From Calditrichota bacterium (GTDB taxonomy: Bacteria > Calditrichota > Calditrichia > RBG-13-44-9 > J075), in NCBI GenBank assembly GCA_024275555.1, contig JAJRYW010000332.1, positions 1-38,315 on the forward strand: 38,315 nt of DNA. The letters run 5' to 3'. A program made the position numbers and the translations under genes. Within the stretch, counting starts at the first letter, position 1. Each line of letters starts with the position of its first letter. The notes under the pieces are model-generated. The model did not search any database. It worked only from the letters and a program-made list of their open reading frames with translations, and was not told the DNA's origin. This document shows, in pieces, positions 19 to 34,727 of the stretch.

Positions 19-1491
19 TTAAAGTTTCTCCGGGTCAATGTTTATATATATATCTTTCAAATCCGAGTAGATGTCCAGGGCTTCGGTGCCGGGCTCCCGG
101 GTGCCGTTTCCGGACTGGCGCAATCCCCCGAAGGGCATGTGCGGTTCACTGCCGTAAGTTCCTGCATTGATCACCGCTACGCCGGCCTGGATTTTATGCG
201 CAAATTCGGTGGCGCGATGGATGCTGCGCGTGTGAATGCAGGCCGTCAGTCCGTAGGGCGAATCGTTGGCCATCTGCAGGGCGGCTTCAAAATTCTTAAC
301 GCGATACAGACAGGTGATCGGGCCGAACAGCTCGGTGGTGGAAATTTCATCATGAGGATCCACCTGTTCGATGAGGGTAGGGGCCATGTAAAAGCCCTGT
401 GCGTGCGTATCACCGGTCAATCGATGTCCGCCGGCCAGAATGACCGCTCCATTTTGTTCGGCACGCCTGATGACCGCCAGCATATTGTCCAGCTGTTTGC
501 GATTGATCACCGGGCCGAGGTCGTCGTTATCGTCCGGTCCGACGGTTAGTTCACCCGTGCGCTGCACCAGCATGGTACGCAGTTGATCATAGACGCTGTC
601 AAAGATAATAATCCTGCTGCCCGACGCGCAGCGCTGCCCGGCGTTGCTGAAGGCCGACAACAGTATCCATTTGGCCGCCGCTTTTAGATCTGCATCATCG
701 CAGACAACCAGGGGATTTTTGCCGCCCAACTCAAGCGAAACCTTTGCCAGGCGTGCGCCGGCCACGGAGGCGATTTTCCGGCCAACCGCAGCGGACCCCG
801 TAAAGCTGATCACATCAACACCCGGATCGGCAACCAGCGGTGCCCCGGCTTCCTCACCGTATCCCTGCACGATATTCAAAACGCCGGGAGGCAAGCCGGC
901 CTCATGAGCGATTTTGCCGAAATACCAGGCCGTGGCCGGTGTGTCTTCAGCGGCTTTCAACACAGCGCTGTTACCGCAGAGCAATGCCGGAAACACTTTC
1001 CAGGCCACATTGGCGATCGGCGTGTTGGCGGCAATAATTAGTCCGGCAACCCCCAGCGGCTGCCGCACGGTCATGGCATATTTGTTGGGCACCGCACTGG
1101 TGGTGGTCCGGCCGTAAAACCGGCGGCCTTCTCCGGCTATAAACTCGCCCAGGGCAATGGCGCCGCCGGTTTCACCCAAGGCAGCGCCGGGAGCCATTCC
1201 GGTTTCCGCGGCAACGACGGCCGCGATCTCCCGGCGGTATTTACGCAGGGTCCGGGTAATTTCATACAGCAGGTCCCCGCGCTGTACCGGTGTAAGACTG
1301 GCCCACGCAGGCTGGGCGTTTCTTGCGGCCCCCACCGCTTTGTGGACATCATCGGTTCGGGAGCGCACCACTTTATACAGTTCTTTGCCGGTGTCCGGAG
1401 ACAGCTTGCCGAATGTGTTTTGCGACATTGCCTCCGACTCTTTTCCATCAATCCAGTTGGGAATTATACCGGGGATGTTATTCGGACTCAT
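19..1491 (-). CDS. Aldehyde dehydrogenase family protein
   Basis: ALDH motifs: FTGS (NAD binding), LELGGKNP (catalytic Glu), NAGQRCAS (catalytic Cys), ELFGP, PFGG. Start set at ATG 1491 (GGGG upstream); ATG 1527 is an alternative. Confidence 0.93.
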   Translation of the reverse strand: MSPNNIPGIIPNWIDGKESEAMSQNTFGKLSPDTGKELYKVVRSRTDDVHKAVGAARNAQPAWASLTPVQRGDLLYEITRTLRKYRREIAAVVAAETGMAPGAALGETGGAIALGEFIAGEGRRFYGRTTTSAVPNKYAMTVRQPLGVAGLIIAANTPIANVAWKVFPALLCGNSAVLKAAEDTPATAWYFGKIAHEAGLPPGVLNIVQGYGEEAGAPLVADPGVDVISFTGSAAVGRKIASVAGARLAKVSLELGGKNPLVVCDDADLKAAAKWILLSAFSNAGQRCASGSRIIIFDSVYDQLRTMLVQRTGELTVGPDDNDDLGPVINRKQLDNMLAVIRRAEQNGAVILAGGHRLTGDTHAQGFYMAPTLIEQVDPHDEISTTELFGPITCLYRVKNFEAALQMANDSPYGLTACIHTRSIHRATEFAHKIQAGVAVINAGTYGSEPHMPFGGLRQSGNGTREPGTEALDIYSDLKDIYINIDPEKL

Positions 1492-1756
1492 TTTAGCCCC
1501 ACTTTTTTTAGTTTGGTAATAGTTCATCGCAGAGTCGCAGCTTCCGGCCCATAGGGCCTATGGCCTACGCCCCGGGGGAGAGCGCAAAAGGTCATCTTTT
1601 TTTCGTTATTTCGTGCTTACTTTCTCCTGTCTGGGTCCGGTTTATCCGGGTAAATTATAGTCATTATTCTGGATTCGATATGAAACATTATAAAAAGAGC
1701 GGAGCGCAACGACATCTTTCATTATTCATTCGTCCCTCATCAATCGTCATTCCCCA

Positions 1757-2569
1757 TCACCAGGCGGTGTAGCCCCCGTCCACGATGAGTTCGGTGCCGG
1801 TCACATAGGAGGATGCCGATGATGCCAGAAAAAGTAGCGGGCCCCGCAGATCTCCGGCCTGTGCCATTCTTCCCATGGGTACGCGACTGCAGAATTTGCG
1901 TTTAAACTCTTCATCCTGGTCTCCGAGCACCCCGCCCGGTGACAGGGCATTGACCCGCACCCCCCGGGGAGCCCATACTGTCGCCAGATATCGGGTCAGG
2001 TTGATTACGGCCGCCTTGGAGGCGCCGTAAGCCGGCGGCTTGAGAAACGGCGGATCGCCGGGGATGTGATCGTAAAACCGTTGATCCGGTGAAACACCGG
2101 CATACAGCGAGCCGATGTTGATGATCGAACCGCGTCCCGCTGTCGCCATCCGGCCGCCAAAGACCTGGCTGACAAGAAAAACGCCCAGCGTGTTGACTTC
2201 GAGAATTTGCCGGTTTTCTTCCAGTGGGATATCTTCCAGCAGATAGCCGTCTGCCGCAGCGGAGGGAGGTCGGTCGATTCCGGCATTGTTCACCAGGATG
2301 GTGGGGATGCCGAAGATTTCAACGCATTGTCCACAGGCGGCTTCGAGGGACGACCGGTCCCTGACGTCGGTACGGTAAAGTATAAGGCGTGTCTCATCAA
2401 AGCCCGACTGCAGCCGGCGGTATTCTTCACTGACCGGGGCATCGGGAAGATCAAGGGCGAATACCGAGGCTTGTGCCTCAAGCAGGGTTTCAATCCAGAT
2501 CGGTCCCAGTTTGCCCAAGGCTCCGGTGACGACGGCCACCTTCGATTTTAAGCTGAACATGTTATTCAA
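1757..2569 (-). CDS. SDR family NAD(P)-dependent oxidoreductase
   Basis: TGALGKLG Rossmann motif, NNAG, YGASK (YxxxK), PGG, VDGG C-terminus. The TTG start overlaps the neuB stop (TTGA, 2566-2569), suggesting translational coupling. Confidence 0.92.
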   Translation of the reverse strand: MNNMFSLKSKVAVVTGALGKLGPIWIETLLEAQASVFALDLPDAPVSEEYRRLQSGFDETRLILYRTDVRDRSSLEAACGQCVEIFGIPTILVNNAGIDRPPSAAADGYLLEDIPLEENRQILEVNTLGVFLVSQVFGGRMATAGRGSIINIGSLYAGVSPDQRFYDHIPGDPPFLKPPAYGASKAAVINLTRYLATVWAPRGVRVNALSPGGVLGDQDEEFKRKFCSRVPMGRMAQAGDLRGPLLFLASSASSYVTGTELIVDGGYTAW

Positions 2570-3645
2570 GATGCAGCGGCCTCCGCCCAGCGTTCGGAAC
2601 CATTCAGCACCTCGATGGAGATGTCGTCATCTTCTTTCAGGGCCCGGCGGGTAGCCCGCCCGATGACTTTGTCGATCTCATAAGGATGCAGACCGTCGCC
2701 CGGCGATTTGATGGCAAGGTCTTCGCGCCGGATGGTATGACCGGCCGGAAGATCCCGGGCAGCCACAATTTTTTTGCCCATCTTGGTGATCGGGTTGACC
2801 TCACTGTCATACGTCCGCTTGATCCCGTCTCCCAGGGCAGCCTTGGTACGTTCCAAATCGCGCACCATCTTGCGAAACCCGATGGGTTCCAGGGAAAAAG
2901 CATGGTCGGTACCTTTCCAGGTGTGATTGAGGGTGAAATGCTTTTCGACAATCCTGCTGCCCAGCATGTAAGCGGCTACCGCCATGGCGATGCCATTGTC
3001 ATGGGATGACAAACCGACCACAATATCGGGGAAGCGTTCGCGAAAAGTGGTGATGACGCGCAAATTCAGTTCGCTGAATTCAGCCGGATATCCTGCCGTA
3101 CACTGTAAAATGCACAGCTGGGGGTTGCGCGGCATGATGGCGTCATAGGCCCGGTTGACATCTTCCATGGTCCCCCCACCGGTACTGATAATCATTGGTT
3201 TTTGAAATTCGGCGACGTGGGTGAGTAACGGGATGTTTTTCAGCTCGCCGGATGCCATTTTATAAAAAGGCAAGTCGAGTTTTTCCAGAAAATCAGCACT
3301 GGCAAAATCAAAGGCGGTGGCAAACAGGGTGACCCCGATTTCTTTGGCGTAATCCATGAGTTCCTTGTATTCAATGTAGCCGAATTCCAGAAATTCCCGG
3401 TGTTCTCCGTAGGTTGCGCCATAGCTGTTGGGATTGTCATAGGGCTTGTTATAACCTGCCTTGGTAAACAGCGACCGGTTGTCTCTTTTTTGCAGTTTTA
3501 CGGCGTCAGCACCGCATTCTTTCGCCACCCGGAACATCTCTTTGGCGGTCTCAAGTTTGCCCTGGTGGTTGTGGCCGATTTCGGCGATGACGTAACAGTC
3601 ACTGTCGTCTTGAACGATTTTACCGTCCAGTATTATTTTTCGCAT
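2566..3645 (-). CDS. neuB: N-acetylneuraminate/nonulosonate synthase family protein (NeuB) with C-terminal SAF/antifreeze-like domain
   Basis: IAEIGHNHQG, GADAVKLQ, KMASGE, ISTG, QCTAGYP, GLSSH, EKHFTL, GTDHAFSL motifs and a SAF-like tail. ATG 3645 is preceded by a GGGAGG RBS. Product specificity is unknown. Confidence 0.9.
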   Translation of the reverse strand: MRKIILDGKIVQDDSDCYVIAEIGHNHQGKLETAKEMFRVAKECGADAVKLQKRDNRSLFTKAGYNKPYDNPNSYGATYGEHREFLEFGYIEYKELMDYAKEIGVTLFATAFDFASADFLEKLDLPFYKMASGELKNIPLLTHVAEFQKPMIISTGGGTMEDVNRAYDAIMPRNPQLCILQCTAGYPAEFSELNLRVITTFRERFPDIVVGLSSHDNGIAMAVAAYMLGSRIVEKHFTLNHTWKGTDHAFSLEPIGFRKMVRDLERTKAALGDGIKRTYDSEVNPITKMGKKIVAARDLPAGHTIRREDLAIKSPGDGLHPYEIDKVIGRATRRALKEDDDISIEVLNGSERWAEAAAS

Positions 3646-3714
3646 TGTTAGTCCTCCCTTGCAAAATAATTGGTTTCCCCGAATACAAAAATTGGTGATG
3701 GGTTGATTAGTTGT

Positions 3715-3826
3715 TGATGTGGCCGCAAAAAGGCACAAAAACTACAAAAAGAAAATTTTATACTTAATAATTACAGTAGGTTATAAGATCAAGATTCAAA
3801 AATTTTGACTTTTTACAAGATTGTCA
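3715..3826. repeat. 112-bp dispersed intergenic repeat, copy 1
   Basis: Ungapped match to 34571-34682 with 11 mismatches over 112 nt (counted by eye), same orientation. Confidence 0.9.
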
Positions 3827-3880
3827 AATATGGATTTATCCCATTATATAGGAACGAACGTTACAAACAGCGCAACGGCA

Positions 3881-4411
3881 TCATTGTTCCCGGGTCCCAC
3901 GGCCGTCCGTCCGGCTTTGTGCAAACATATCACAAACTTCACGTACGGCGCCATAGCCGCCTGGGCGGCTTGTGCGGTATACGGCGTGGGCGATAACATC
4001 CGGATGTGCGTCGTGAACCACAATGGGCAGAGCGACGCACATAAGACAGGGCAGATCGTTGATGTCGTTACCCACAAACGCTACCTCGGCCAGAGAAATG
4101 CCTGACTCCCCGGCAATACTTTCCAGCGCGGCACGCTTGTCCCGGCAGTCCTGTACACAGCGAATCTTCAGCTTGTGAGCCCGGGCTGAAACCACCGGAT
4201 TGGCCTCGGTGGAGATGATAACAGTTTCAATTCCCAGCTGTTCCAGTTTCTGCAGGCCGAGGCCGTCACTTCGAAAACAGCGTACGGCCTCAGTGCCGTC
4301 CTGCAGGACATAAACCATGTTGTCGGTGAACACACCGTCAAAATCAAAAGCGATCAGGCGAATGTTACCGATTATTTTTTCTATCTTATGAGTGATTTTT
4401 ATTTGAGACAA
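3881..4411 (-). CDS. kdsC: KdsC-family HAD phosphatase (KDO-8-P / KDN-9-P phosphatase-like)
   Basis: FDFDGVFTD (HAD motif I), SDGLG, VGNDIND, GGYGAVREVCD, all typical of the KdsC/YrbI family. Confidence 0.85.
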   Translation of the reverse strand: MSQIKITHKIEKIIGNIRLIAFDFDGVFTDNMVYVLQDGTEAVRCFRSDGLGLQKLEQLGIETVIISTEANPVVSARAHKLKIRCVQDCRDKRAALESIAGESGISLAEVAFVGNDINDLPCLMCVALPIVVHDAHPDVIAHAVYRTSRPGGYGAVREVCDMFAQSRTDGRGTREQ

Positions 4412-4542
4412 ATTTCATTCCGCCCGTGGGTGGATATCGCACTCCCGTCAAGTGCGCTGCCAATGCTAAAGCTGTTGTTTATAACCCGTCCTGCGCCAGG
4501 CTGAGTCTTGTGCCGGATTGTCGTTTTCACCTTAATTATAAA

Positions 4543-6363
4543 TCATGGTACCCTACTTGCCGTAGTTTCGTTTGAAAATATTTCCCCGGTCGTGGGTCCC
4601 GCATGGAGTTTGGGATCGGTGCCCGTTTCGGTTTTTTCCAGGTGCAGGCCGGCAGCCGAAGAAACCTCCGCCGGGAAAACCGATCCGTCCTGTATTCGAT
4701 AGGCCCGATCCGCCACTTCCAGAAGGGCGGTTTGGTGGGAGATCGCCAACATGGTAATTTCCCCCCGCAGTTTCCGTAATGTATTACAAATGGCCGCTTC
4801 ACTTACCGGGTCGAGTGCGGTTGTGGCTTCGTCGAGTACCAGCAGTTTGGGCTTGCGTACGAGCGCGCGCGCGATGGCAATGCGCTGACGCTGGCCGCCG
4901 GACAGCTTGAGGCCGCGCTGGCCCACCGAGCTGTACATGCCTTTGGGCCTTTTTTCGACAAACTCCCAGATTCCTGCCTTGCGTAGCGCTGCTTCCGCTT
5001 CCCGTTCCGTGACATTCGGATCTCCCAGAGAGATGTTTATAAAAATAGAATCGTGAAGCAGCAGCGTTTCCTGGGGTACGTAGCCGATCATGCGCCGCCA
5101 TTGGTGCAGATCCGCCTGTGCCAGCGGTAGGTCGTCGAGCCAGACCTCACCGGTTTTCGGACGTAGCAGGCCGATGACCAGGTCCACAATGGTTGTTTTG
5201 CCGGCGCCCGACGGGCCGACGATTACGGTGATTTCCCCGGCTGGAAAGACAAGCGATATATCGTTGAGGACGTTGTTTTTCGAATAAGCAAACGATACTC
5301 GCTCCAGGCGAATGGCCCGTTTTAACTCCGGTTTCCGGTCCCCAAGCTTCGGTTCGCGCATTTTCTGTGCGATCTCAAGGGTCTGGGTCATGGACCAGTA
5401 ACTGTTTTCGAGGACACTCATTGTTTGATACTGTTTCTGGATTTTTCCGAGCTTGCCCAGGATGCGGCCAAGTAGCAGGATTAAAATCATGACGGCTGTC
5501 GGTGCCATGCCCCAGATAACAATCGTCACATAGATGGCAAGCAGCATAAAGGTCACTTTCATGGCCTCCTGGTAGGCTCCCAGTGACTCTTTGCTGATAA
5601 TTTCTTTTTGCAGGGCATTTTTTAATTTATTGGTTTTGCCAATCAGGATGGCTTCCGCCCGATCTTCACGTGCCATGGCTTTGAGGGGTTTGATGGATAG
5701 AATGCTGTTGACAAATTCCGAAGACATGGACTTTCTTACTTTTACCTGGCGGCGGCCGGCCCGTCTGGCCTTTTTTACAAACCGATTTAGCGGATACCAG
5801 AAGAACAACCCCGCTGCCAGGGCAATCAGGGTCGCTTTCCAGGATACCATCATGGCGATCACGACATAAATCACCGTGTGGATAATAACGACGATGATGG
5901 AAACGCCGGTGGCATAGGCCTTGGCTGTTTGAGACGTTTCACCTCCCATGGCGGCCGCAAGCTTGCCGATGGGCTGGCTGAGATGAAATTCCCAGCGCGC
6001 CAGCATATATGCCCGTAACATTTGCTGGCGTAACTTTGTCGTTAAATGCGCCACCGTGTATCCGACGTTGCGGTTGGCAATCAGAACCAGCACGGTTTTC
6101 AACAGCATGGCGGTCAGGATCAGCATCAACAGGAGTTCCAGCGTCGGGGTCAAGCCGATGGCGTTAAAAATGTCCTGGATCATCTTCCCGGCCGCGGTTG
6201 ACTGTTTGCCGGTTGCACCCTGGGTTTCTCCCAGTGCGATAGTCAGCAGTGGCAGCATCGCCGACAAGCCAATACCTTCGGCGATGCCGGATAACAGCAG
6301 GGCGGCCAACATCGACAGGGTTCGCCACGGGTACTGTCGGAAAATGATAATAACAAGGCGCAT
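4543..6363 (-). CDS. ABC exporter, fused TMD+NBD (MsbA/PglK-like lipid or glycolipid flippase)
   Basis: Multiple TM helices followed by Walker A GPSGAGKT, Q-loop YVPQ, signature LSGGQRQR, Walker B LVLDEATTALD and an H-loop. Start placed at ATG 6363 because the listed upstream extension overlaps spt in another frame. Confidence 0.9.
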   Translation of the reverse strand: MRLVIIIFRQYPWRTLSMLAALLLSGIAEGIGLSAMLPLLTIALGETQGATGKQSTAAGKMIQDIFNAIGLTPTLELLLMLILTAMLLKTVLVLIANRNVGYTVAHLTTKLRQQMLRAYMLARWEFHLSQPIGKLAAAMGGETSQTAKAYATGVSIIVVIIHTVIYVVIAMMVSWKATLIALAAGLFFWYPLNRFVKKARRAGRRQVKVRKSMSSEFVNSILSIKPLKAMAREDRAEAILIGKTNKLKNALQKEIISKESLGAYQEAMKVTFMLLAIYVTIVIWGMAPTAVMILILLLGRILGKLGKIQKQYQTMSVLENSYWSMTQTLEIAQKMREPKLGDRKPELKRAIRLERVSFAYSKNNVLNDISLVFPAGEITVIVGPSGAGKTTIVDLVIGLLRPKTGEVWLDDLPLAQADLHQWRRMIGYVPQETLLLHDSIFINISLGDPNVTEREAEAALRKAGIWEFVEKRPKGMYSSVGQRGLKLSGGQRQRIAIARALVRKPKLLVLDEATTALDPVSEAAICNTLRKLRGEITMLAISHQTALLEVADRAYRIQDGSVFPAEVSSAAGLHLEKTETGTDPKLHAGPTTGEIFSNETTASRVP

Positions 6364-6404
6364 CGTTTTTAGAAATCCAAACTTTCTGTTAATTAAACGT
6401 CCGA

Positions 6405-7595
6405 TCAGCCGGTTTGAGCGGTTTGATAAGCGGCAGCAAATGCCTGACCAATGTGCTCGATCTGCTCCGATGTGTGACCGGCACTCATACTGCAGCGCAG
6501 CAAAGCGCCGCCATCGGGCGTGGCCGGCGGCAGCACCAGGTTGACGTACACACCGTGTTCCACCAGTCGATTCCAGATGGCCAGGGCTTCGACTTTGTCT
6601 TCCTGCCTGATGGCGATAATGGGACTGGATTCCGGTCCCAGCGAAAGACCCAGGTTCTGCAGCTTTTGATAAAGCATGTCGGCATTCTTCCAGAGGCGGC
6701 GGCGCAACTCCGGTCGCGTGCGCAAAATATTTAATGCCTTGCGTGTCGAGGCGATGATCCCCGGTGACGACGATGCAGTGAATACGTAGGGCCGGCTTGC
6801 ATAGCGCACCAGGTCCAGTTGCCGATGGTTGCTGACGCAAAACCCGCCGATGGTGCCCAGGCTTTTACTGAAAGTGCCGACGATAAAGTCCGTCTCATCT
6901 TCCATACTGGTCTCCTCGGCAAGTCCCCGCCCGTTTTCGCCAAGAACGCCCAGGGAATGGGCCTCGTCTACCAGCAGATAAGCGCCGTATTTGCGTTTTA
7001 CCGCGGCGATGTCCGCCAGGGGCGCACGATCTCCCAGCATGCTGTAAAGGCCTTCCACAACAATCAGGACATTTGTGTTGCGTTTCGCAAGCCGTCGCAG
7101 CCGTTTTTCCAGATCATTTACATCGTTGTGCCGAAAGCGAATGACTTCGGCGCTTCCCAGGCGGCATCCATCATAAATGCTGGCATGGCAGTCCGCATCC
7201 AGCAGGATGACCTCATCGGGACCCACCAGGGTGGAGAGCATCGCCAGGTTGGCAATATAGCCGGTGGAAAAGACAATCGTATTGCGGTATCTAAAAAAAT
7301 CCGCCAACTCCTTTTCCAGGGCCACATGGCCTGAAAAGGTTCCATTGGCCATCCTGGATCCGGTGGTGCCGGTCCCCGCCCGGCGGGTGGCCTCGCAGGC
7401 GGCCTTGATACAATCGGTATCAAACGAAAGCCCCAGATAATTATTGCTGCCGGCCAGGATCATGCGACGGCCGTTGACAACAGCTTCTGTGGCCGAAATA
7501 ATCTCTTCCATGACGATATTGAAAAAGGCACTGCATTGCTGTTCAATTGATTGACGGGCAGCTGCCAGCGGCTGGAATTTATCGAAAATATTCAT
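6405..7595 (-). CDS. spt: Serine palmitoyltransferase (alpha-oxoamine synthase, PLP-dependent)
   Basis: GSNNYLGL, GTTGSRMANG, DADCHASIYDG, DEAHSLG and GTFSKS (PLP Lys) resemble Sphingomonas-type SPT. The acp/FAAL/CerR-like/bCerS-like neighbours favour SPT over BioF/Kbl. Confidence 0.87.
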   Translation of the reverse strand: MNIFDKFQPLAAARQSIEQQCSAFFNIVMEEIISATEAVVNGRRMILAGSNNYLGLSFDTDCIKAACEATRRAGTGTTGSRMANGTFSGHVALEKELADFFRYRNTIVFSTGYIANLAMLSTLVGPDEVILLDADCHASIYDGCRLGSAEVIRFRHNDVNDLEKRLRRLAKRNTNVLIVVEGLYSMLGDRAPLADIAAVKRKYGAYLLVDEAHSLGVLGENGRGLAEETSMEDETDFIVGTFSKSLGTIGGFCVSNHRQLDLVRYASRPYVFTASSSPGIIASTRKALNILRTRPELRRRLWKNADMLYQKLQNLGLSLGPESSPIIAIRQEDKVEALAIWNRLVEHGVYVNLVLPPATPDGGALLRCSMSAGHTSEQIEHIGQAFAAAYQTAQTG

Positions 7596-7618
7596 TGTCA
7601 GCCATCCTCGTTCAATTT

Positions 7619-7846
7619 TTAGATTTGCAGAACAAGGTCCTCAACGGTACGTACATCCGGTAGGATATTTAACGGAATAGAGATATCAAAGCGGTCTTCC
7701 ACGATTTCCAGAATCTTCATGACTTTTAGTGAATCAAGGCCCAGTTCGCCCACCAGATCCGTCTCCGGCCTGATTGCATATCCCTCCGGAACAAATGATT
7801 GGAGGATTTGGTAAATCTGTTGCAACATGTTTCCGTTTGCCTGCAT
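7619..7846 (-). CDS. acp: Acyl carrier protein (sphingolipid-dedicated type)
   Basis: 75 aa, acidic, LGLDSL phosphopantetheine motif, directly upstream of spt. Confidence 0.92.
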   Translation of the reverse strand: MQANGNMLQQIYQILQSFVPEGYAIRPETDLVGELGLDSLKVMKILEIVEDRFDISIPLNILPDVRTVEDLVLQI

Positions 7847-7896
7847 AACCTTTCATTTCCTTCCTTCGACCTTCGACATTTATACACAGCCGTGAT

Positions 7897-8838
7897 TTAC
7901 ACCCCGGTGTGCCACTGCAAAGTGCGCTGCAGACCCTCGGCCAGCAGGATTCGGGGAGTCCAGCCGGTACTTGTGCTCAGGGCCCCATTATCGCTGATCC
8001 AGTCGGTATGCTGCAGCTCACGAATTTTCCCGGGGGTTAGCATGGGTGCATAACCGAAAGCCCGGGCGGAGACCAGGTTAAGCATGGCGATCAGTTTTGC
8101 CAGGATCAGCGGGACCCTTATGCAAACCACGGGTCTGTCGCCTCTCAGGTGTCTGGCCGTGGCGATTACATCATGCCAGGAGTATCCGCCGGGTTTTCCA
8201 TCATGCAGCTCAAACGTGCGGCCCTGACCGTTGTTGCAATTCAGCCAGCGTACAATACCCTCTACCAGGTCTTCCACAAAAATCAGAGAAAAACGGCCCT
8301 GGCCGGACCCCGGCAGCGGAGCAACGCCCCTTGCCATCCGGCGCCAGACAGGCAGCAGCTCCCGATCGCCCGGGCCATATACCGCACATGGCCGAAAAAC
8401 GGTCCATGGCATTTTAGCAGATTCAGCGGCCAGTACCTCCTCTGCCAATCGTTTGCTGGCAGCGTAAGGAGATAGCTGAGGTTCCCGGGCTGCCAGCGAT
8501 GACATCAATAAAAAACGCGGCGCCGGGTGTTGTTCGGTCGCCGCTTGTACCAATTGTGCCACGCCATTTACATTTACATGATTGAATTGCGCCTGGGTGG
8601 CTCCGCGCACCGTGCCGGCGCAATGTACTATAGTATCCACTCCGCGGACCAGCTGCAGGAGACTTTGATGGTCTTCAAGGTCGCCCTCTATCCATTCGGC
8701 GGGAAGGCCGGCGGGCCGTTTGGAAGCCGATGCAGGGCGGAACAGAGCGCGGATATGCCAGCCGTTGGATGTCAATCGTCGTATCAATGCGCCGCCGATA
8801 AATCCCGTACCCCCGGTTAAGGCTAACGTGCGAGGCAT
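7897..8838 (-). CDS. cerR: NAD-dependent epimerase/dehydratase family protein, ceramide reductase (CerR)-like
   Basis: TGGTGFIG, SSLAAREPQLSPYAASK (YxxxK), VYGPGD. Its position between the acyl ligase and acp-spt matches the Caulobacter sphingolipid locus. Confidence 0.75.
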   Translation of the reverse strand: MPRTLALTGGTGFIGGALIRRLTSNGWHIRALFRPASASKRPAGLPAEWIEGDLEDHQSLLQLVRGVDTIVHCAGTVRGATQAQFNHVNVNGVAQLVQAATEQHPAPRFLLMSSLAAREPQLSPYAASKRLAEEVLAAESAKMPWTVFRPCAVYGPGDRELLPVWRRMARGVAPLPGSGQGRFSLIFVEDLVEGIVRWLNCNNGQGRTFELHDGKPGGYSWHDVIATARHLRGDRPVVCIRVPLILAKLIAMLNLVSARAFGYAPMLTPGKIRELQHTDWISDNGALSTSTGWTPRILLAEGLQRTLQWHTGV

Positions 8839-9010
8839 GGAGCTCTCCCATCAGACGCATTTTTAAACGATTTATTCATCCGCCTTCACGTTCAAACAGG
8901 GCGAAAACCTGATCTGCAAGCTGAACAAAAAAGGCGTTCGGCAGTGATTTCCGCTGCTTCACCCGTCTTTGATTCATCGGTTATGCTTGTTTGTTGTATC
9001 AAATTCAAGG

Positions 9011-10792
9011 TTAGACAGCCCGCTGGCGGAGCGTTGCGGCGTAAAGGTCTACGCTGGGTTCTTTTGATAGTTTGGCAGAGATCCGTTTCAGATACTCTTT
9101 GCGAGCTCCCGAGCGGGACAGCTTGCCGGACGTCGTTCTGGGTAAGGTATTGCGAGGCACGAGTTCAATCAGACAGTCAATGCCAAACTCCTTGCGTACC
9201 AGGCTGTGTAAACGCTCACGCAATTCAGCGCGCTTCTTTTCATCTGATTCACGGCACTGGACCATCATAACGGCCTGCTCCTGCCCATCCTGGCCGGGCA
9301 CCGAAAAGGACGAGGCATCCCCCGTACGTACTTCGGATTGCTGTTCCGCCACATACTCCAGGTCCTGGGGCCAGATATTGCGACCGTTGATGATGATCAG
9401 GTCCTTTTCACGCCCTGTAATTGCGAGGCTGTTTCCAATGCGATAGGCCAGGTCGCCGGTATTCAGCCAGCCCTCAGGAGATAAAACTTCCCGGGTGGAT
9501 CTGAGATCGCTGAAGTAACCGGACATGACGCTGGGTCCCCGGACATAGAGGGTTCCACAGTGCCGTTCCGGCAGCACCCGCCCCCGGGTATCTCTGATTT
9601 CCACTTCGTAACCTGGTAGCGGTGCTCCGCAATTAATAAAGGTATGTGAGGGTGTCGTCTCGTTGTCGTGAGCGGGATGCAGGGGCAGGGCTTTTTGCTG
9701 TTCAGCAAGCGCTGTGCGCTCCACATGATCGACATCGATTCCCTGGCCCAGGGGGGCAAAGCTTACCGCCAGGGAACATTCCGCCATACCATAGCAGGCT
9801 ACGTATGAACGTCGGTCAAACCCGCTGGGTGCTAAAAGACTGGCAAATTTATCAAGCGGATCGGTGCGAATTGTTTCCGCACCGACGCCGGCAAGACGCC
9901 AACTGCTAAGGTTGAACTTATCTGTTTCATTTTCCCGAATGCGGTGGGCGCACAATTCGTAACCAAACGGCGGACTGATGGACAGGGTCGCTTGATTTTG
10001 GGAAATCAGGCTCAGCCACATCCGCGGACGCATGGCAAAATCCCGGGTACTCAGGAAATCCACCGACAGCTGAGCCGCCATGGGGGACAACACCAGGCCG
10101 ACGAGTCCCATATCATGGTAATAGGGAAGCCAGGATACCGCCCGGTCACCGGGCCGAACCTGGATGCCGTATTTAAGAATAGCGAACAGGTTGCTCAGCA
10201 CAGCTTTCTGGGTGATCATCACGCCCCGGGGAAATCGAGTGCTGCCGGAAGTGTACTGCAGGTAGGCCACCTCGTTTGGTTGAGAGGGTCGCAACCGGGT
10301 ATTGGGTTCCATCAGATCGTAATAGTCCTGTGGAGTGCCGATAAAACGTAATTTTAATCCCTGGGCGGCTTCCGTCAGGTAGGGAAGAAAGTCCTCGGAG
10401 GCCATGGCAATTTCAGCCTGGCAGATTGACAGCAGTCTTTCCAATTGGGAGACATATGCCTGGCGGCCACCCAGGTGGATTGAAGCCGGCAGCGGAACGG
10501 GAATCAAACCTGCGTACTGACAGGCGAAAAAGAAACGCATAAAGTCAGGATGGGTTTCCGCCACCAGGGCTACGCGCGCACCGTGGTTAATTCCCAGGTC
10601 CATAAAACGGCGTGCCAGCGACTGGGCGTCTTTCTGTAATTCTGAGTAGGGCAGCCGTGCGTATAATTTTCCTCCACCGGTATAAAAATTATACCCGGTT
10701 TTTCCCCGGGCAGCGTAGTCGAGTGCTTCTGCTAGCGTAGAAAAATCTGCAATTCGTAACGGCAGATCATTAGCGGCCGGTGTAGCATCCAT
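9011..10792 (-). CDS. Fatty acyl-AMP ligase / acyl-ACP synthetase
   Basis: YLQYTSGSTRFPRG (A3), SWLPYYHDMGL, YGMAE, TGDL, GREKD, LPRTTSGK. AAGGAGG RBS before ATG 10792. Confidence 0.9.
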   Translation of the reverse strand: MDATPAANDLPLRIADFSTLAEALDYAARGKTGYNFYTGGGKLYARLPYSELQKDAQSLARRFMDLGINHGARVALVAETHPDFMRFFFACQYAGLIPVPLPASIHLGGRQAYVSQLERLLSICQAEIAMASEDFLPYLTEAAQGLKLRFIGTPQDYYDLMEPNTRLRPSQPNEVAYLQYTSGSTRFPRGVMITQKAVLSNLFAILKYGIQVRPGDRAVSWLPYYHDMGLVGLVLSPMAAQLSVDFLSTRDFAMRPRMWLSLISQNQATLSISPPFGYELCAHRIRENETDKFNLSSWRLAGVGAETIRTDPLDKFASLLAPSGFDRRSYVACYGMAECSLAVSFAPLGQGIDVDHVERTALAEQQKALPLHPAHDNETTPSHTFINCGAPLPGYEVEIRDTRGRVLPERHCGTLYVRGPSVMSGYFSDLRSTREVLSPEGWLNTGDLAYRIGNSLAITGREKDLIIINGRNIWPQDLEYVAEQQSEVRTGDASSFSVPGQDGQEQAVMMVQCRESDEKKRAELRERLHSLVRKEFGIDCLIELVPRNTLPRTTSGKLSRSGARKEYLKRISAKLSKEPSVDLYAATLRQRAV

Positions 10793-10937
10793 AGCAACTA
10801 TAGCCTCCTTGTTTAAATCAAGTCCGCGCAGGCGATTCACTCCCCCAAGAATCATCTGCTCAACTTAAAATCTGCAGCCTATCCCCTGATCTTCATCCTT
10901 TGCCATTTCAATTCAGGGCAGTGCTGCCGATGGTTGG

Positions 10938-11626: not shown

Positions 11627-12424
11627 TTACCGGTCGCACAATATCTTTTCCACGAGTTGCCAATCGCCGGGCGAATCGACATCTATGGCTGCTTCCGGGA
11701 ATGGCATGACCACGGCACCCGCTTTAATTCCCATACGTTGCGAAATCCGGCCTAAAGCTTCAGTGAGGGACAAATGTCTCAGTAGATAACGCAGGACCGT
11801 TGACCACCCCAAAATCGTAATCATACGCAGGGGGTTTTTACGCCGGGTTTCGATGCTACGCCAGAAATCCGCCGCCAGCCGCGCCTGCGGGGTCAGGAAG
11901 GCAAACAGGTTACAGCCGCAGTAAGCCCCATCCTGCAAGCGAATGGCGGTTCTGCGGGTTTCGGGATAGGCGGCTTGCACCACTTCATGCAAAGCTACCC
12001 CCACCACGACGTCACAATCCGTCGTCTGCGCCCGGGAACAGAAATAATCCACAATACGGGTGTTTAGCAGGGCATGGTCGGCGGTGGTCAAAAGAATGGG
12101 GGTTTCGTCCGCCAAGGATTCGAGGACATGGAGGGCGCTCGCACTTGGGGTTGCCTGATTTTCACTCCACTCGACCCTGCCCGAGGTGATCAGCTGCCTC
12201 AGGTCCGGCTCCTGTTCAAGGATAGATCTGGGGGGGCCGCAAAGGATGCGGGTGTTTATCTGGGGTGATGCGGCCAGGGTAGCCAGCACGCGCAAGACCA
12301 TCGGTATGCCCCCAACAGGGATCATGGCTTTATAGCGAGCACCGGCGGCTTCAATCAGGGGATCTTTCGCTCCGCGGTCTGCGGCTAGTACTATTGCAGT
12401 AAACGCGGTCTGCGGATTGTGCAT
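11627..12424 (-). CDS. MobA-like NTP transferase (nucleotidyltransferase; CpgD-like by context)
   Basis: AIVLAADRG N-terminal nucleotide-binding loop, YKA..VGG.PM, TADHALL, C-terminal DVD. Confidence 0.8.
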   Translation of the reverse strand: MHNPQTAFTAIVLAADRGAKDPLIEAAGARYKAMIPVGGIPMVLRVLATLAASPQINTRILCGPPRSILEQEPDLRQLITSGRVEWSENQATPSASALHVLESLADETPILLTTADHALLNTRIVDYFCSRAQTTDCDVVVGVALHEVVQAAYPETRRTAIRLQDGAYCGCNLFAFLTPQARLAADFWRSIETRRKNPLRMITILGWSTVLRYLLRHLSLTEALGRISQRMGIKAGAVVMPFPEAAIDVDSPGDWQLVEKILCDR

Positions 12425-12442: not shown

Positions 12443-12795
12443 TTTCAGGTGTCGGTGTTCCCCGCTTCCGCTTCGCTTCAGACGGGATCTTCGTCAGGTT
12501 TCAGCACCTCAACTCCCTGAAACCTCGTGTGAAACTACACAGTGTTGGAACAGCGAACCGCAGAATATCGAATATTGAATGTCGAAGGAAGGAAACGCTT
12601 CGCTAAATCTTTTATAAAACAGACAGAATACATTATTCGACGTTGGACGTTCGATGTTCGGCGTTCATTTTTTTAGTTAACCCGTAATATAAAAATAGCA
12701 AAGACCAAAGTTTCTTCTACGATCAGACTGGACGCCCGCGGCCAGAGGCTCCGCTTATATGAAACTAGGCCAAAATGGCAGTTTCTCTTTCGATT
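12443..12795. repeat. Composite/nested intergenic repeat region with inverted heptamer arrays
   Basis: gaatatc-gaatatt-gaatgtc-gaa (~12562-12585) faces the inverted array ttcgacg-ttggacg-ttcgatg-ttcggcg (~12636-12663). tgaaacta occurs twice, and tttcaggtgt also occurs at ~18223. Confidence 0.6.
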
Positions 12796-12840: not shown

Positions 12841-14010
12841 TCAAAGTTTTTTGTTGTAAATGCGATAGGTTTTATAGACCCTGCCGCCGATTGATTCGAT
12901 AATATTGCGCATTCGCATGTTGTCCTCCAGTATCCAGGAAAGCTCAACTTCCTTGATGCCGAGTTTCCGGCCAGGTTCCAGAGTTGAGGCAATCATCATG
13001 AATGCGAGCGCGGCCCCCAGCAGGTTGTCATGGTAACGGCACCGTACGCCCATTAGGGGAATGCGCGCGGATTGGGGGTATTTTACCTTCAGTCGCCACA
13101 GCATTTTGAGCCAGCCGAAGGGCAGAAGCCTTCCATTGAGATCCCGGATGACCTCATTGATGTTCGGCAGAACCACGAGAAAGGCAGCGGGCTCTCCGTT
13201 CACCTCGGCAATTTTGACCAGTTTTTCATTGGCCAGCATTTTCAGATCCTTTCCCAAATGCTCGAATTCTACGGCGGTGAAGGGAACAAAGCCCCAGTTT
13301 TGTGACCAGGCATCGTCGTGAATGCTCTTGATAACTGCTAGTTCGGCGCTAAAATTGGATTTTTGAAGCGACCGGATGCGCACATTTTTTTTCGCCCTTT
13401 TGGTGACGGTCTGCATCGCGGCGGAAGGTTTAAAATCCGCATCGATAATGTACGCCAGCAGGTCCTTTTCTTTGGTGTACCCATTTTCAGCCAGGCGATT
13501 GCCATAATATGGCCGGGCATGGCCCATCATCAGCGACGGTGGGGTGTCAAAACCGTCCACCAGCAATCCAAGCTCCTGGTTGATGGATAGATTAAACGGC
13601 CCGCTGATGCGTTGCATTCCCTGGTTGCGCAGCCAGGACTCGGCCGTATCCAGCAATGCCTGAAATGTCCGGGTATTGTCTTCTGCTTCCAGCATCCCGA
13701 AAAAGCCGGTGGCATTCCGGTACCGTTCGAGATAAAGACTATCTTTCTGAGCACTGATTCGGCCCACGGGCCTGCTATCGCGGTAGGCCAGCCAGGAACA
13801 ATAGGCGGCATGCTTGAAATAAGGATTTTTCGGTGAAAGGTGCTCACGCCTTTCCAGCACCAGCGGGGGAACCCACATGGGATCGTCCCCATAGAGGGAC
13901 CATGGCAGGCGAATAAATTCATTCAGCGCACGGCGCCCCCCCACTTTGATAATTTGCAATGATTCATGACGGTGATGTCCGGGGGGCTGATGGTGTTGAA
14001 CAGGTTTCAT
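12841..14010 (-). CDS. bcerS: GNAT-fold N-acyltransferase, bacterial ceramide synthase (bCerS/YghO)-like
   Basis: LPWSLYGDDPMWVPPL, GRISAQ, FFGMLEA, GPFNLSINQELGLLVDGF, WSQNWGFVPFT, ELSWILEDN and KTYRIY are characteristic of the YghO/bCerS family, and the gene is in an spt neighbourhood. Confidence 0.8.
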   Translation of the reverse strand: MKPVQHHQPPGHHRHESLQIIKVGGRRALNEFIRLPWSLYGDDPMWVPPLVLERREHLSPKNPYFKHAAYCSWLAYRDSRPVGRISAQKDSLYLERYRNATGFFGMLEAEDNTRTFQALLDTAESWLRNQGMQRISGPFNLSINQELGLLVDGFDTPPSLMMGHARPYYGNRLAENGYTKEKDLLAYIIDADFKPSAAMQTVTKRAKKNVRIRSLQKSNFSAELAVIKSIHDDAWSQNWGFVPFTAVEFEHLGKDLKMLANEKLVKIAEVNGEPAAFLVVLPNINEVIRDLNGRLLPFGWLKMLWRLKVKYPQSARIPLMGVRCRYHDNLLGAALAFMMIASTLEPGRKLGIKEVELSWILEDNMRMRNIIESIGGRVYKTYRIYNKKL

Positions 14011-14258: not shown

Positions 14259-14390
14259 TACGTCATTAAAAAGATAGTTCGCTTCCGGTAAAACTTCGTA
14301 ATCCCTTAAAAACATCTATATTTTAAGTATGTTGTAGAAATTCCGAACCATCTAATTAGTCAGGTGAAAAGGGTCTGCAGAGGAGCACGG

Positions 14391-14858
14391 ATGAATAAAA
14401 ACACGGAAATATTGATTTATGAACTGGCTTTCCGGGTGCGTTTATACATAGCATCCAGGGTTCTGGATAAAAATGTAGCTGACTTGACTGATCGTGAAAG
14501 CCTCATACTTGAACTGATCGGGATGCAGGGCCGGATGAGTATATCGGAAATTGGAAAATTGTACCCAAAGGTGAGTAACAGCACCATTTCCACGACGATT
14601 ACAAAGCTATGGAAAGACAAAAAACTTGTTGATAAAAAGATATTGCCGGAAAATCAACGGGTAACAACCGTAAGTTTAACTGAAAAAGGCGAACAGGTAT
14701 TGGCGGAAATAAGAAGCTCCCAGTCGCATTTTTTCAGCACAATCACCCAATCCCCGGGCCTGATTTCCGATCAAGTCGAACATTTTCAGCGGCTTTTAAC
14801 AAATGCCATTGTTTTTTTTGATAAAACCCTCGGGCTGAAAGCTGACAAGGGGCCCTGA
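14391..14858 (+). CDS. MarR family winged-helix transcriptional regulator
   Basis: LTDRE..IL..I, SISEI, STISTTITKL..KKLV, ENQRVTTVSLTEKG pattern. GAGGAG RBS before ATG 14391. Confidence 0.85.
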   Translation: MNKNTEILIYELAFRVRLYIASRVLDKNVADLTDRESLILELIGMQGRMSISEIGKLYPKVSNSTISTTITKLWKDKKLVDKKILPENQRVTTVSLTEKGEQVLAEIRSSQSHFFSTITQSPGLISDQVEHFQRLLTNAIVFFDKTLGLKADKGP

Positions 14859-14869
14859 ATGATAAAAAA

Positions 14870-15955
14870 TTGATCATCGACCGTTACATAATCCGTGAAA
14901 TCAGCAAGCCCATGGCGGCTATATGCGCGGTTCTGGTAGCCATCTTTGCCAGCTACAGTGCCGCACAGTATCTTGCTGATGCTGTCAGTGGTCTGTTTCC
15001 GCCGGGAGCGTTGTTGTTGATGCTGGTGCTGAGAATCGCCATCGCCCTGGAGGTGCTGCTGCCCACAACCCTGTATCTGTCTGTTGTGATTGCTCTCGGA
15101 CGTATGCACAGAGACTCCGAAATGATTGCCCTGTCATCCTGTGGTGTCGGAACTTCCCGGGTACTGAAGTCCGTTTTCTATTTTGCATTCGCCATTGCCA
15201 TACTGGTAGCCGGTCTATCGATCTATGTCCGTCCGTGGGCCTTTAAAGAAGTTTACCGGTTACAGGCATATGCTAAGAGCGACTTTGATATTTCCCGGAT
15301 GGAAGCCGGAAATTTCTATGAAATAAAATCAGATCGTCTCGTTATATTTGCGGAAAAGGTAGACCACAAAGCTAATCGGGCGGAAGGGGTTTTTATCCGC
15401 AGCCAGGATGGACAAAACCTGCAGGTAATTTTTGCCAAGCAGGTCTATCAGCGTACCGAAGCAGTGCATGGCAGGCGGGTGTTACTATTGCAGGATGGAT
15501 ATCTCTACGAGTTTACGCGTAGCGGCGAAAAGGGTAAAATCACTCAATTTCAGCGAGTGACCTATTTAATATCGCCCAATGAGTCGATCGCACTTAAGTA
15601 TAAACGTAAAGCGGCCTCCACCGGGCATTTGTTTCGCTCACGCAAACTCAAGGATATCGCAGAATTCCAGTGGCGGCTATCCACACCCTTGTCGACCCTG
15701 CTTCTGGCACTACTCGGTGTGCCTTTGAGTCGAACGACTCCACGCCAGGGAAAGTATGTAAAGGTGGTCGCGGCTGTCTTGATTTTTGCAGTTTACTACA
15801 ACATTACCATCGTAGCCAAGAATTGGATAGAAAAAGGTGTTTTAAACGCCGTTCCTGGAATCTGGTGGGTTCAGGTCTCACTGGCAGGACTTGTCTTGGT
15901 GTTGCTGTGGCGTACGGGCGATGTGTTCGTACGCCGTGGTACAAAAATGACATAA
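14870..15955 (+). CDS. lptF: LptF/YjgP family ABC permease (paralogue in the sphingolipid locus)
   Basis: IIDRYIIREI N-terminus, DSEMIAL..CG, AEFQWRLSTP, 3 TM + periplasmic domain + 3 TM layout. Confidence 0.88.
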   Translation: MIIDRYIIREISKPMAAICAVLVAIFASYSAAQYLADAVSGLFPPGALLLMLVLRIAIALEVLLPTTLYLSVVIALGRMHRDSEMIALSSCGVGTSRVLKSVFYFAFAIAILVAGLSIYVRPWAFKEVYRLQAYAKSDFDISRMEAGNFYEIKSDRLVIFAEKVDHKANRAEGVFIRSQDGQNLQVIFAKQVYQRTEAVHGRRVLLLQDGYLYEFTRSGEKGKITQFQRVTYLISPNESIALKYKRKAASTGHLFRSRKLKDIAEFQWRLSTPLSTLLLALLGVPLSRTTPRQGKYVKVVAAVLIFAVYYNITIVAKNWIEKGVLNAVPGIWWVQVSLAGLVLVLLWRTGDVFVRRGTKMT

Positions 15956-21833: not shown

Positions 21834-22108
21834 ATCTCTCTTCCTTGTTTTTACGTTTTCTGTTACAAGGGCAAAATCCAAAACTGTATATATAACCACA
21901 TTTTGATTATATAGCAAGCAAGAAAACGACAGCGCAGCGATTCTAATTACGACCCTGAAGCATCAGAAACTAGAATCACGGTCCAGAATACATGCGTTGA
22001 CACGCCATTCGGTATCTGGTAAATAGCGCATTCGACTGCTTAAGCTATGCTAAATTGTAATCCACGTGTGGACAATCCTTACGAAACGGTGACCCCAGGA
22101 CCCAAAAA

Positions 22109-34475: not shown

Positions 34476-34570
34476 TGATTGTTTCTCCTTGGTCGGTTGT
34501 TGGTCCCTGGTTTCCGGATCATAAAAGCTCAAAACAAAAGGGAAGAAGCGATTATTAATGAGCTATAAAC

Positions 34571-34682
34571 TGATGTGGCCGCAAAAAGGCACAAAAAACA
34601 CAAAAAGAAAATTTTATGCTTAATAATTACAATAAGTTATAATATTAAAATTCAAGAATTTTGACTTTTTACGAGATTGCCA
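34571..34682. repeat. 112-bp dispersed intergenic repeat, copy 2
   Basis: About 90% ungapped identity to 3715-3826; lies between gatC and gatA. Confidence 0.9.
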
Positions 34683-34727
34683 TAAACGAATATCCGTGAG
34701 TTTTTATTCGGCATCCCGAAATCCATC

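Follow-up and report, generated by a model that had tools for sequence, protein, structure and literature searches.

We analysed a 38,315-nt contig (JAJRYW010000332.1) of the assembly GCA_024275555.1, which is labelled as a Calditrichota bacterium, and refer to this whole stretch as the window. The window is one complete contig (contig C241 of the bin, G000) and begins at contig base 1, so the assembly holds no sequence to the left of position 1. Open reading frames (ORFs) were listed, and their families were assigned with Pfam and NCBIfam profiles and their curated cut-offs. The results showed that nine co-oriented minus-strand ORFs occupy positions 19-10855, comprising predicted ceramide genes, an ATP-binding cassette (ABC) exporter gene and a module around a NeuB-family ulosonate synthase. 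All nine genes had been read from the bare sequence in an earlier, first-pass annotation; they lie at the places given there, and their families are confirmed by Pfam and NCBIfam. The features of this run are as follows.

19-1527, minus strand: aldehyde dehydrogenase (ALDH; PF00171, 485 bits), the last gene on the contig
1757-2569, minus strand: short-chain dehydrogenase (SDR; adh_short_C2, 139 bits)
2566-3645, minus strand: NeuB-family ulosonate synthase of the kind that condenses phosphoenolpyruvate (PEP), 359 aa (PF03102, 256 bits, plus SAF)
3715-3835, no strand: dispersed repeat of about 120 nt within the kdsC-neuB gap
3881-4411, minus strand: KdsC/YrbI-type HAD phosphatase, below all curated cut-offs
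4543-6363, minus strand: type-I ABC exporter with fused membrane and ATPase domains (ABC_membrane and ABC_tran)
6405-7595, minus strand: serine palmitoyltransferase (Spt; equivalog NF047599, 628.4 bits against a cut-off of 500)
7619-7846, minus strand: dedicated acyl carrier protein (ACP; PP-binding, 40.8 bits)
7897-8838, minus strand: CerR-like NAD(P)-dependent epimerase-family reductase (PF01370, 108 bits)
9011-10855, minus strand: fatty acyl-AMP ligase (FAAL) in the role of acyl-ACP synthetase (NF006624, 788 bits against a cut-off of 600)

With Spt above its equivalog cut-off and an ACP and an acyl-AMP ligase adjoining it, the predicted ceramide gene set appears to match the bacterial ceramide route. 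The CerR-like reductase was assigned by its family and by its position between FAAL and ACP, a place that is kept in relatives. Two gene starts had to be set. The neuB ORF as listed spans 2566-3738 and opens with TTG at 3738; its likely true start is the ATG at 3645, because the family match agrees with it and this ATG has a conserved ribosome site, GGGAGGA. The ABC exporter starts with the ATG at 6363, a 765-aa version opening with TTG being too long and running into spt.

The genes are closely packed, with gaps of 23 nt (acp-spt), 41 nt (spt-ABC) and 131 nt (ABC-kdsC) and a 4-nt overlap of the neuB stop with the SDR start; the kdsC-neuB gap measures 235 nt (3646-3880) from the ATG at 3645, half of it taken by the 121-nt repeat. 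These coordinates agree with the spacing, overlap and half-filling repeat described earlier. A 770-nt AT-rich stretch with no ORF of at least 70 aa lies upstream of FAAL, which fits an operon start with FAAL as the first gene. A promoter or terminator between ABC and kdsC had been named as evidence that would break the proposed unit; a consensus scan, which is a weak test with totals close to the shuffled expectation, found no consensus terminator or strong promoter in either the ABC-kdsC or the kdsC-neuB gap. No RNA dataset was listed for positions 1500-8000, 23 runs each containing at most 0.07 of the words of that stretch, and no Rfam family reached its gathering score in the window.

The ulosonate genes and the predicted acid

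The synthase of the module, with its Pfam NeuB and SAF domains, is predicted to be a NeuB-family member whose specificity the profiles leave undefined. It scored below both equivalog cut-offs (300.1 versus 399.65 for TIGR03569, NeuB_NnaB; 245.3 versus 340.25 for TIGR03586, PseI), and among PDB sequences it was about equidistant from SpsE, PseI and NmNeuB (E 1e-39 to 1e-44), the conserved family blocks being aligned. The KdsC-like HAD protein is a candidate ulosonate-phosphate phosphatase: the HAD motifs DFDGV and GNDIND are readable and its PDB relatives are of the KdsC type, at scores below the cut-offs of NF007019 (116 versus 208), TIGR01670 (100.1 versus 106.95) and NF058599, the KDN-9-P phosphatase model (86.4 versus 180). 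The NCBIfam models nearest to the SDR, all below cut-off, are sugar-acid oxidoreductases (mannonate, gluconate-5 and KduD), so that this protein resembles enzymes acting on 2-keto-3-deoxy sugar acids. The best models for ALDH, likewise all below cut-off, are alpha-ketoglutaric semialdehyde and 2,5-dioxovalerate dehydrogenases, and the protein is a candidate ulosonate tailoring enzyme.

No aminotransferase, N-acetyltransferase or NeuC-type gene was found among the window genes at 19-10855. In the best-matching locus of another genome (L024, described below), the region downstream of ALDH held no amino-sugar supply gene among ORFs of at least 90 aa, shorter and mostly overlapping ORFs being unscanned. 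A KdsC-type phosphatase implies a phosphorylated substrate. In the routes to 2-keto-3-deoxynonulosonic acid (KDN) and to animal sialate, the synthase acts on a sugar 6-phosphate and a KdsC-type phosphatase follows. With no amino-sugar genes, the product would be KDN-like, or like 3-deoxy-D-manno-octulosonate (Kdo), rather than sialic acid proper. We speculate that a 3-deoxy-2-ulosonic acid without an amino group is made, which may be oxidised further to a dicarboxylic form. The first-pass annotation had called it nonulosonic, or sialic-like; that name is supported only as a family label, since NeuB stays below both equivalog cut-offs and amino-sugar genes are missing.

Conservation, linkage and export in related genomes

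A search of a species-representative collection gave 331 NeuB relatives, labelled Desulfosarcinaceae, Desulfobacterales and related groups, and the best 80 loci (72-93% identity), every one of them from a metagenome-assembled genome, were kept. Among these, loci besides L024 were mapped only with query proteins from the window and L024. L024 is the top NeuB locus and is collinear with the window, eleven genes showing 60-93% amino-acid identity. Past ALDH, it encodes a cytidylyltransferase of PF02348 (closest NCBIfam model PseF at 144 bits, under the cut-off), a fused protein resembling transketolase, two TIGR04396 proteins, a sulfotransferase-like protein and a GT2 glycosyltransferase. This arrangement recurs: SDR directly follows NeuB in 69 of the 70 loci with at least 1 kb downstream, a cytidylyltransferase comes after ALDH or SDR in all 54 loci with at least 4 kb downstream, and the 40 loci with at least 9.5 kb downstream contain ALDH (34), TIGR04396 (33), transketolase-like (29) and sulfotransferase (22) genes. 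The first-pass annotation had predicted a NeuA/KdsB-type cytidylyltransferase and a transferase beyond the left edge or elsewhere; in syntenic relatives the cytidylyltransferase and candidate transferases indeed lie just past that edge, but they are not in this assembly.

Linkage to the ceramide genes was counted in the 37 Desulfobacterota-labelled loci whose sequence reaches at least 5 kb upstream of neuB. A co-oriented Spt gene ends 1.9-4.9 kb upstream of neuB in 31 of them and the ABC gene is present in 32, the six loci without Spt being L040, L044, L046, L048, L055 and L100. The KdsC gene separates ABC from NeuB in 13 of the 37 loci, and in Gammaproteobacteria it lies at the 3' end of the module. 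The order spt-ABC-(kdsC)-neuB-SDR-ALDH, whose conservation had been proposed as a check, is therefore kept in many genomes.

Co-occurrence was examined in 301 genomes drawn evenly from the order of G091, a Desulfosarcinaceae-like genome. NeuB was found in 23 and Spt in 31 of these genomes; 19 have both, 4 NeuB only, 12 Spt only and 266 neither. Spt thus occurs in 19/23 NeuB-positive versus 12/278 NeuB-negative genomes. In 16 of the 19 genomes with both, the two genes lie within about 5 kb on one contig; they are 2 Mb apart in G160 and on separate contigs in G322 and G355. The contig stops right after ABC or KdsC in 8 of the 12 Spt-only genomes. The genes after ABC in NeuB-less clusters formed no alternative head-group cassette; they were unrelated (TauE, flavin mononucleotide reductase, methyl-accepting chemotaxis protein) or a nucleotidyltransferase with LptF. 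Of the four NeuB-only genomes, two carry divergent NeuBs (58-63% identity), and in the other two NeuB lies on a short fragment at the end of a contig. Elsewhere, Spt is 30 kb away from the module in G045, and a true Spt (59-63% identity) is found away from the module in 7/8 module-bearing gammaproteobacterial genomes. These linkage and co-occurrence figures support a functional tie between the module and the sphingolipid genes, without proving it.

The two TIGR04396 proteins of L024 (466 and 470 aa; "surface carbohydrate biosynthesis protein") reached 382 and 367 bits against a cut-off of 125, and matched the BFO_1060 family weakly (58 and 53 bits versus a cut-off of 200). According to PMC5420450, transfer of a pseudaminic-acid derivative in Tannerella forsythia genetically requires the founder of that family, Tanf_01245, a protein with HP and acidic motifs. 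Among 31 aligned TIGR04396 sequences, His246-Pro247 and Asp83-Glu84-Glu85 were invariant. Weak Pfam matches were of the glycosyltransferase B (GT-B) type (Epimerase_2 in 7/31, DUF354 in 5/31 and LpxB in 2/31), the TIGR04396 profile had no match among PDB sequences, and one protein-language-model lead pointed to Glyphos_transf. The genes are usually tandem paralogues about 55% identical (L024:16416-19232 and relatives), and two such transferases would fit the addition of two residues. An additional TIGR04396 copy stands between the sphingolipid ABC gene and neuB in 4 of the 37 loci. The sulfotransferase-like proteins carry the motifs GKSGTT and RDPRDxxVS, which we take to be the two motifs that bind 3'-phosphoadenosine-5'-phosphosulfate.

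The exporter had been described as MsbA-like. A type-I exporter is in place, but it is a separate paralogue, distinct from MsbA: it scored 227 bits on the MsbA model (TIGR02203) against a cut-off of 602, and in 5/5 relatives a canonical MsbA (500-755 bits) is encoded elsewhere, the cluster ABC being among the weakest matches (235-273 bits). That the cluster ABC is the organism's MsbA is thereby ruled out. It directly follows Spt even in NeuB-less clusters, which places it first with the sphingolipid core. In G160, the sole cluster-type ABC accompanies KdsC-NeuB, 2 Mb from Spt; G045 has a single cluster-type ABC, which is with Spt, 30 kb from NeuB; and G041 has one copy at each place. We regard the exporter as a candidate dedicated glycosphingolipid flippase.

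Neighbouring genes, repeats and origin of the contig

Beyond the nine genes, the window encodes further predicted lipid and transport functions.

11627-12424, minus strand: MobA/CofC-like nucleotidyltransferase (NTP_transf_3; PF12804, 51 bits), kept beside the cluster
12841-14010, minus strand: GNAT-like protein of 389 aa, candidate bacterial ceramide synthase, with no Pfam or NCBIfam match
14870-15955 and 15999-17066, plus strand: LptF/LptG-family permease pair (PF03739, 225 and 247 bits)
17228-18148, minus strand: metallophosphoesterase (PF00149), kept near the cluster
18505-19560, plus strand: DAGK_cat lipid kinase, ceramide-kinase-like (PF00781, 58 bits)
19563-20519, plus strand: 318-aa protein with no known family in Pfam or NCBIfam, kept near Spt clusters

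The nucleotidyltransferase, GNAT-like protein, metallophosphoesterase, kinase and 318-aa neighbour recur beside Spt clusters with or without NeuB. The GNAT-like protein is kept beside the cluster at 57-80% identity, and its look-alikes by language model, which are a lead only, are GNAT proteins of about 400 aa. By analogy with the Caulobacter sphingolipid genes CC_1153 and CC_1158 described in PMC11324152, the nucleotidyltransferase may correspond to the former and the metallophosphoesterase to the latter. CpgB is the Caulobacter ceramide kinase (PMC10331486), and enzymes of the kinase, nucleotidyltransferase and phosphoesterase types are reported as required for Caulobacter ceramide (di)phosphoglycerate (PMC10331486, PMC11324152). 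Because the same enzyme types are present here, the organism may make a phosphosphingolipid, either alongside an ulosonate lipid or in its place. Pfam and NCBIfam revealed no CDP-alcohol-transferase-like protein in the window.

The permease pair is 71% (LptF) and 68% (LptG) identical to the cluster-linked pair of G091 and about 22% identical to the G091 pair beside MsbA, and is predicted to be a second, divergent LptF2/G2-like pair with a putative transport role. In Caulobacter, locus-encoded LptF2/G2 paralogues are described as needed for sphingolipid transport (bioRxiv 10.64898/2026.04.12.717747). In G041, a single contig carries LptF-LptG-ABC-x-ACP-Spt as one co-oriented run, and in G042 the NeuB module has an LptF-LptG-ABC set back to back with it. 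The LptFG neighbourhood thus points to a sphingolipid rather than to lipopolysaccharide (LPS). We rejected linkage to LptFG as an argument for LPS, given that the pair is unlike the MsbA-side pair and that Caulobacter provides the LptF2/G2 precedent. A MarR-family gene (14364-14858, plus strand) lies directly upstream of the LptF2/G2-like pair and encodes a candidate regulator of the locus; in several relatives a MarR gene is instead placed divergently beside FAAL.

Two other genes lie near this region. For the radical-SAM protein at 20616-21917 (minus strand), the top NCBIfam match, a weak one, is to the tetraether lipid synthase Tes (63 bits, with the cut-off at 450). G144 has a copy with 72% identity next to its Spt cluster, and the protein may be a further lipid-modifying enzyme of the locus. 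An LpxL-family acyltransferase is encoded near the cluster at 22109-23050 (plus strand), and another one (L060:8897-9868) beside a gammaproteobacterial NeuB module, their mutual identity being 26-28%.

The 121-nt repeat at 3715-3835 has a second window copy at 34571-34691 (88% identity), just downstream of an amidase (GatA-like) gene at 33015-34532. A blastn search with the kdsC-neuB gap gave 9 matches, spread over 7 contigs of the bin and including 2 on the window; the other repeat-bearing contigs of G000 are C478, C336, C32, C311, C620 and C243. The copies are AT-rich, of about 115-121 nt, and the element is possibly similar to a miniature inverted-repeat transposable element. The copy at 3715-3835 is a lineage-specific insertion, because L024 has no repeat there and the ribosome-binding region of neuB is conserved. 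Apart from this element, a 25-nt inverted pair (7856-7880 and 12571-12595, 88% complementary) has one arm between CerR and acp and the other between the GNAT-like and nucleotidyltransferase genes. Its 20-nt core has 2 matches versus 0.01 expected by chance, and the pair may represent an operator common to both sites or a small repeat element.

The DnaK encoded in the window (26468-28378) shows 83-86% identity to three Desulfosarcinaceae-like genomes and 60-70% to relatives of the bin. A second DnaK of the bin (G000:C367:4080-5978) has the opposite pattern, with 82-91% identity to the bin's relatives versus 62-64% to the Desulfosarcinaceae-like genomes. As these two DnaKs show opposite ancestry, the window contig is probably a mis-binned Desulfosarcinaceae-like fragment. 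The Desulfosarcinaceae-like genomes G091, G092 and G093 each contain two DnaK paralogues, 83-86% and 78-79% identical to the window DnaK. The composition of the contig relative to the bin is not decisive (GC 50.2% versus 52.4%; rank 128 of the 142 contigs of at least 10 kb in tetranucleotide distance). No NeuB orthologue was found in 40 relatives of the bin or in all 86 genomes of the assigned phylum, and the best Spt-like matches there (34-40% identity) were BioF/Kbl-like. This lack of NeuB and true Spt stems from the binning problem, not from the cluster's own biology. In the bin, searches for the L024 cytidylyltransferase and transketolase likewise turned up no orthologue, only 31-34% matches (likely KdsB and a transketolase); since the contig seems mis-binned, the absence of the downstream genes from the bin is uninformative.

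Proposed product and comparison with known systems

The cluster is real, conserved and modular, and is the first part of a larger envelope-lipid gene set of a Desulfosarcinaceae-like bacterium. As the most likely reading, we propose that a CMP-activated, often sulfated ulosonate is put on a sphingolipid, that the dedicated ABC exporter flips this lipid, and that LptF2/G2 then take it over; we judge the chances of this reading to be evenly balanced. In this pathway, NeuB would condense PEP with a sugar phosphate to give a KDN- or Kdo-like acid, KdsC would take off the phosphate, and SDR and ALDH would modify the acid by oxidation or epimerisation, a dicarboxylic ulosaric acid being one possible outcome. 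After activation by the cytidylyltransferase, the TIGR04396 enzymes would add one or two residues to ceramide, or to a group linked to it, on the cytoplasmic side of the inner membrane, and the sulfotransferase may add sulfate. The ABC exporter would flip the lipid, and LptF2/G2 would pass it to the Lpt bridge and so to the outer membrane. This pathway would end in a strongly anionic glycosphingolipid that parallels Kdo2-lipid A. Ceramide as the attachment site is what we infer from gene linkage and co-occurrence alone. A fuller version, which we put forward only tentatively and hold to be rather doubtful, is that sulfate reducers and sulfur oxidisers of marine sediments build a Kdo2-lipid-A-like ceramide with one or two CMP-derived, non-aminated 3-deoxy-ulosonic (or perhaps ulosaric) residues, often sulfated, which is assembled on the cytoplasmic face, flipped by a dedicated MsbA-like paralogue and brought by a duplicate LptF2/G2 set to the outer leaflet, as a second system parallel to LPS whose cassettes have been transferred across phyla. 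Compared with the overall reading of the first-pass annotation, conserved synteny, the hidden genes in relatives and the dedicated exporter speak for it, but the sialic-like nature of the acid is unsupported.

A number of findings weigh against attachment of the ulosonate to ceramide, and many of them suit another explanation, in which the NeuB module makes a CMP-ulosonate for the LPS core, O-antigen, capsule or a glycoprotein and sits beside Spt as an island hitch-hiker, while the ABC exporter and LptF2/G2 serve a plain or phosphorylated ceramide. NeuB-family products are normally destined for LPS, capsule or flagellin. The module occurs without Spt in 4/23 NeuB-positive genomes of the order sample, and in G044 (Anaerolineales-labelled, 9.0 Mb) and G043 (2.3 Mb), which give only 34-37% BioF-like matches; in Gammaproteobacteria it adjoins an LpxL-family acyltransferase and has Spt beside it in 0/10 loci. 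Conversely, intact Spt-ABC clusters end after ABC without the module in G144, G187, G274 and G370, so that ceramide and exporter do not need the module. TIGR04396 is by annotation a general surface-carbohydrate family, whose characterised distant relatives act on a protein-bound O-glycan. Genes that are physically linked in a transferable island will co-occur even if they share no product, and related genomes do not count as independent cases; the order of G041 has 15 NeuB-positive genomes, all of them Spt-positive, which says little because 37 of the 45 genomes there have Spt. The window itself has no cytidylyltransferase or transferases, its contig ending before them, and the bin, which is probably not the source genome, did not yield them either; transcription could also be uncoupled at the 235-nt kdsC-neuB gap, where the repeat is inserted. 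What this explanation does not account for is that the diderms of the order should all have LPS, yet the module is largely confined to Spt-positive genomes. The co-occurrence persists where the genes are unlinked, in G160, G045 and 7/8 gammaproteobacterial genomes; the LptFG-ABC set at the side of the module in G042 is the one that runs with ACP-Spt in G041; a TIGR04396 gene lies between the sphingolipid ABC and neuB in 4 loci; and the cluster ABC of G160 goes with the module and not with Spt. We see a destination in LPS, capsule or glycoprotein as the main rival, possible but well below likely.

The genes at 11.6-20.5 kb, which the first-pass annotation overlooked, open an alternative anionic head-group route that also counts against an ulosonate on ceramide. 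Here, the ceramide would bear a Caulobacter-type phosphate or phosphoglycerate head group, and the NeuB module would extend that head group or be unrelated to it. The DAGK_cat kinase, NTP_transf_3 protein, metallophosphoesterase and second LptFG pair are all in the window, recur beside Spt with or without NeuB, and belong to the types required in Caulobacter; the likeness, however, is one of enzyme type, no CDP-alcohol-transferase-like protein was recognised, and the 318-aa neighbour has no family. Such a head group leaves unexplained why the NeuB module tracks Spt, and the two head groups are compatible, as Caulobacter is described as making both glyco- and phospho-sphingolipids (PMC11324152). 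We consider this explanation unlikely.

Head groups and export routes of bacterial sphingolipids are largely unknown outside a few model species. Such lipids are nevertheless widespread, and in Caulobacter they can partly substitute for LPS. The conserved linkage of ceramide genes with a dedicated ABC exporter, another LptFG pair and a full CMP-ulosonate/transferase/sulfotransferase module leads to the prediction that abundant sediment bacteria make a new class of acidic glycosphingolipid. If the ulosonate sphingolipid is real, it would extend the Kdo/lipid A logic to another lipid anchor, give a function to the uncharacterised TIGR04396 family, provide additional candidate biomarkers for sediment lipidomics and name a candidate inner-membrane sphingolipid flippase, a step for which the Caulobacter work, in the sources at hand, gives only a candidate gene (CC_1166). 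If it is not, the locus still records a conserved envelope-biogenesis island.

An acidic sugar on ceramide, as proposed here, is also found in vertebrate gangliosides and in glycosphingolipids of Emiliania huxleyi, Sphingomonas and, reportedly, Chlorobium limicola. Those of Sphingomonas contain uronic acids, and the aminoglycosphingolipid of C. limicola reportedly contains neuraminic acid, for which a literature search on Chlorobium sphingolipid and neuraminic acid gave no confirmation. We know of none of these lipids being encoded by an spt-linked NeuB/CMP/TIGR04396/sulfotransferase operon. E. huxleyi is described as having a sialic-acid glycosphingolipid (PMC5371807), and the C. limicola compound goes back to a 1991 paper cited in PMC11762602. 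Literature searches found no ulosonate- or sialic-acid-bearing bacterial sphingolipid and no spt-neuB linkage, supplementary gene tables being outside the search, and nothing relevant on ulosaric acids. The earlier statement that a lipid of this type is not known to have been described thus stands for ulosonates within these searches, but acidic sugars on bacterial sphingolipids have some precedent in Sphingomonas and, reportedly, in Chlorobium.

For the acid itself, the closest pathways are the KDN route of Bacteroides thetaiotaomicron and the animal Neu5Ac-9-P route, with which the locus shares a NeuB-family synthase and a KdsC-type phosphatase, there being no amino-sugar genes here. The phosphatase also matches PDB entries of the KDN-9-P phosphatase. 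Unlike in the KDN route, it is weaker on the KDN-9-P model than on KdsC, and the locus adds an SDR as an obligatory partner and, in most cases, an ALDH and a transketolase-like enzyme. The TIGR04396 proteins resemble the Tannerella forsythia transferases Tanf_01245 and TFUB4_00887, as described in PMC5420450, in length (about 445-470 aa), in their place next to a CMP-nonulosonate pathway, in a GT-B/TagB-like prediction and in the HP motif; the similarity is weak, however (58 bits versus 200), and the Tannerella enzymes act on a protein-bound O-glycan.

The overall logic is that of Kdo2-lipid A (KdsA, KdsC, KdsB, WaaA, MsbA and LptB2FG), which likewise involves a PEP-dependent synthase, a HAD phosphatase, CMP activation, the addition of up to two residues to a lipid at the cytoplasmic face, an ABC flippase and LptFG extraction. 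In contrast, the synthase here is of the NeuB family and not KdsA, the cytidylyltransferase is nearest to PseF and not to KdsB, TIGR04396 takes the place of WaaA, the exporter is far below the MsbA cut-off, and the proposed acceptor is ceramide instead of lipid A. The most similar locus is CC_1152-CC_1168 of Caulobacter crescentus. In the sources cited, it is not described with a NeuB-type synthase, a CMP-ulosonate synthetase, TIGR04396 or a sulfotransferase, and, unlike there, the candidate flippase here is a type-I ABC exporter directly after spt. Both loci share an acyl-ACP synthetase, an ACP, Spt, CerR and a GNAT-type ceramide synthase (the last two as candidates in the window), a second LptF/LptG pair inside the locus, and a lipid kinase, a nucleotidyltransferase and a phosphoesterase nearby. 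The product in Caulobacter is an anionic outer-membrane sphingolipid, and a lipid of the same kind is proposed here.

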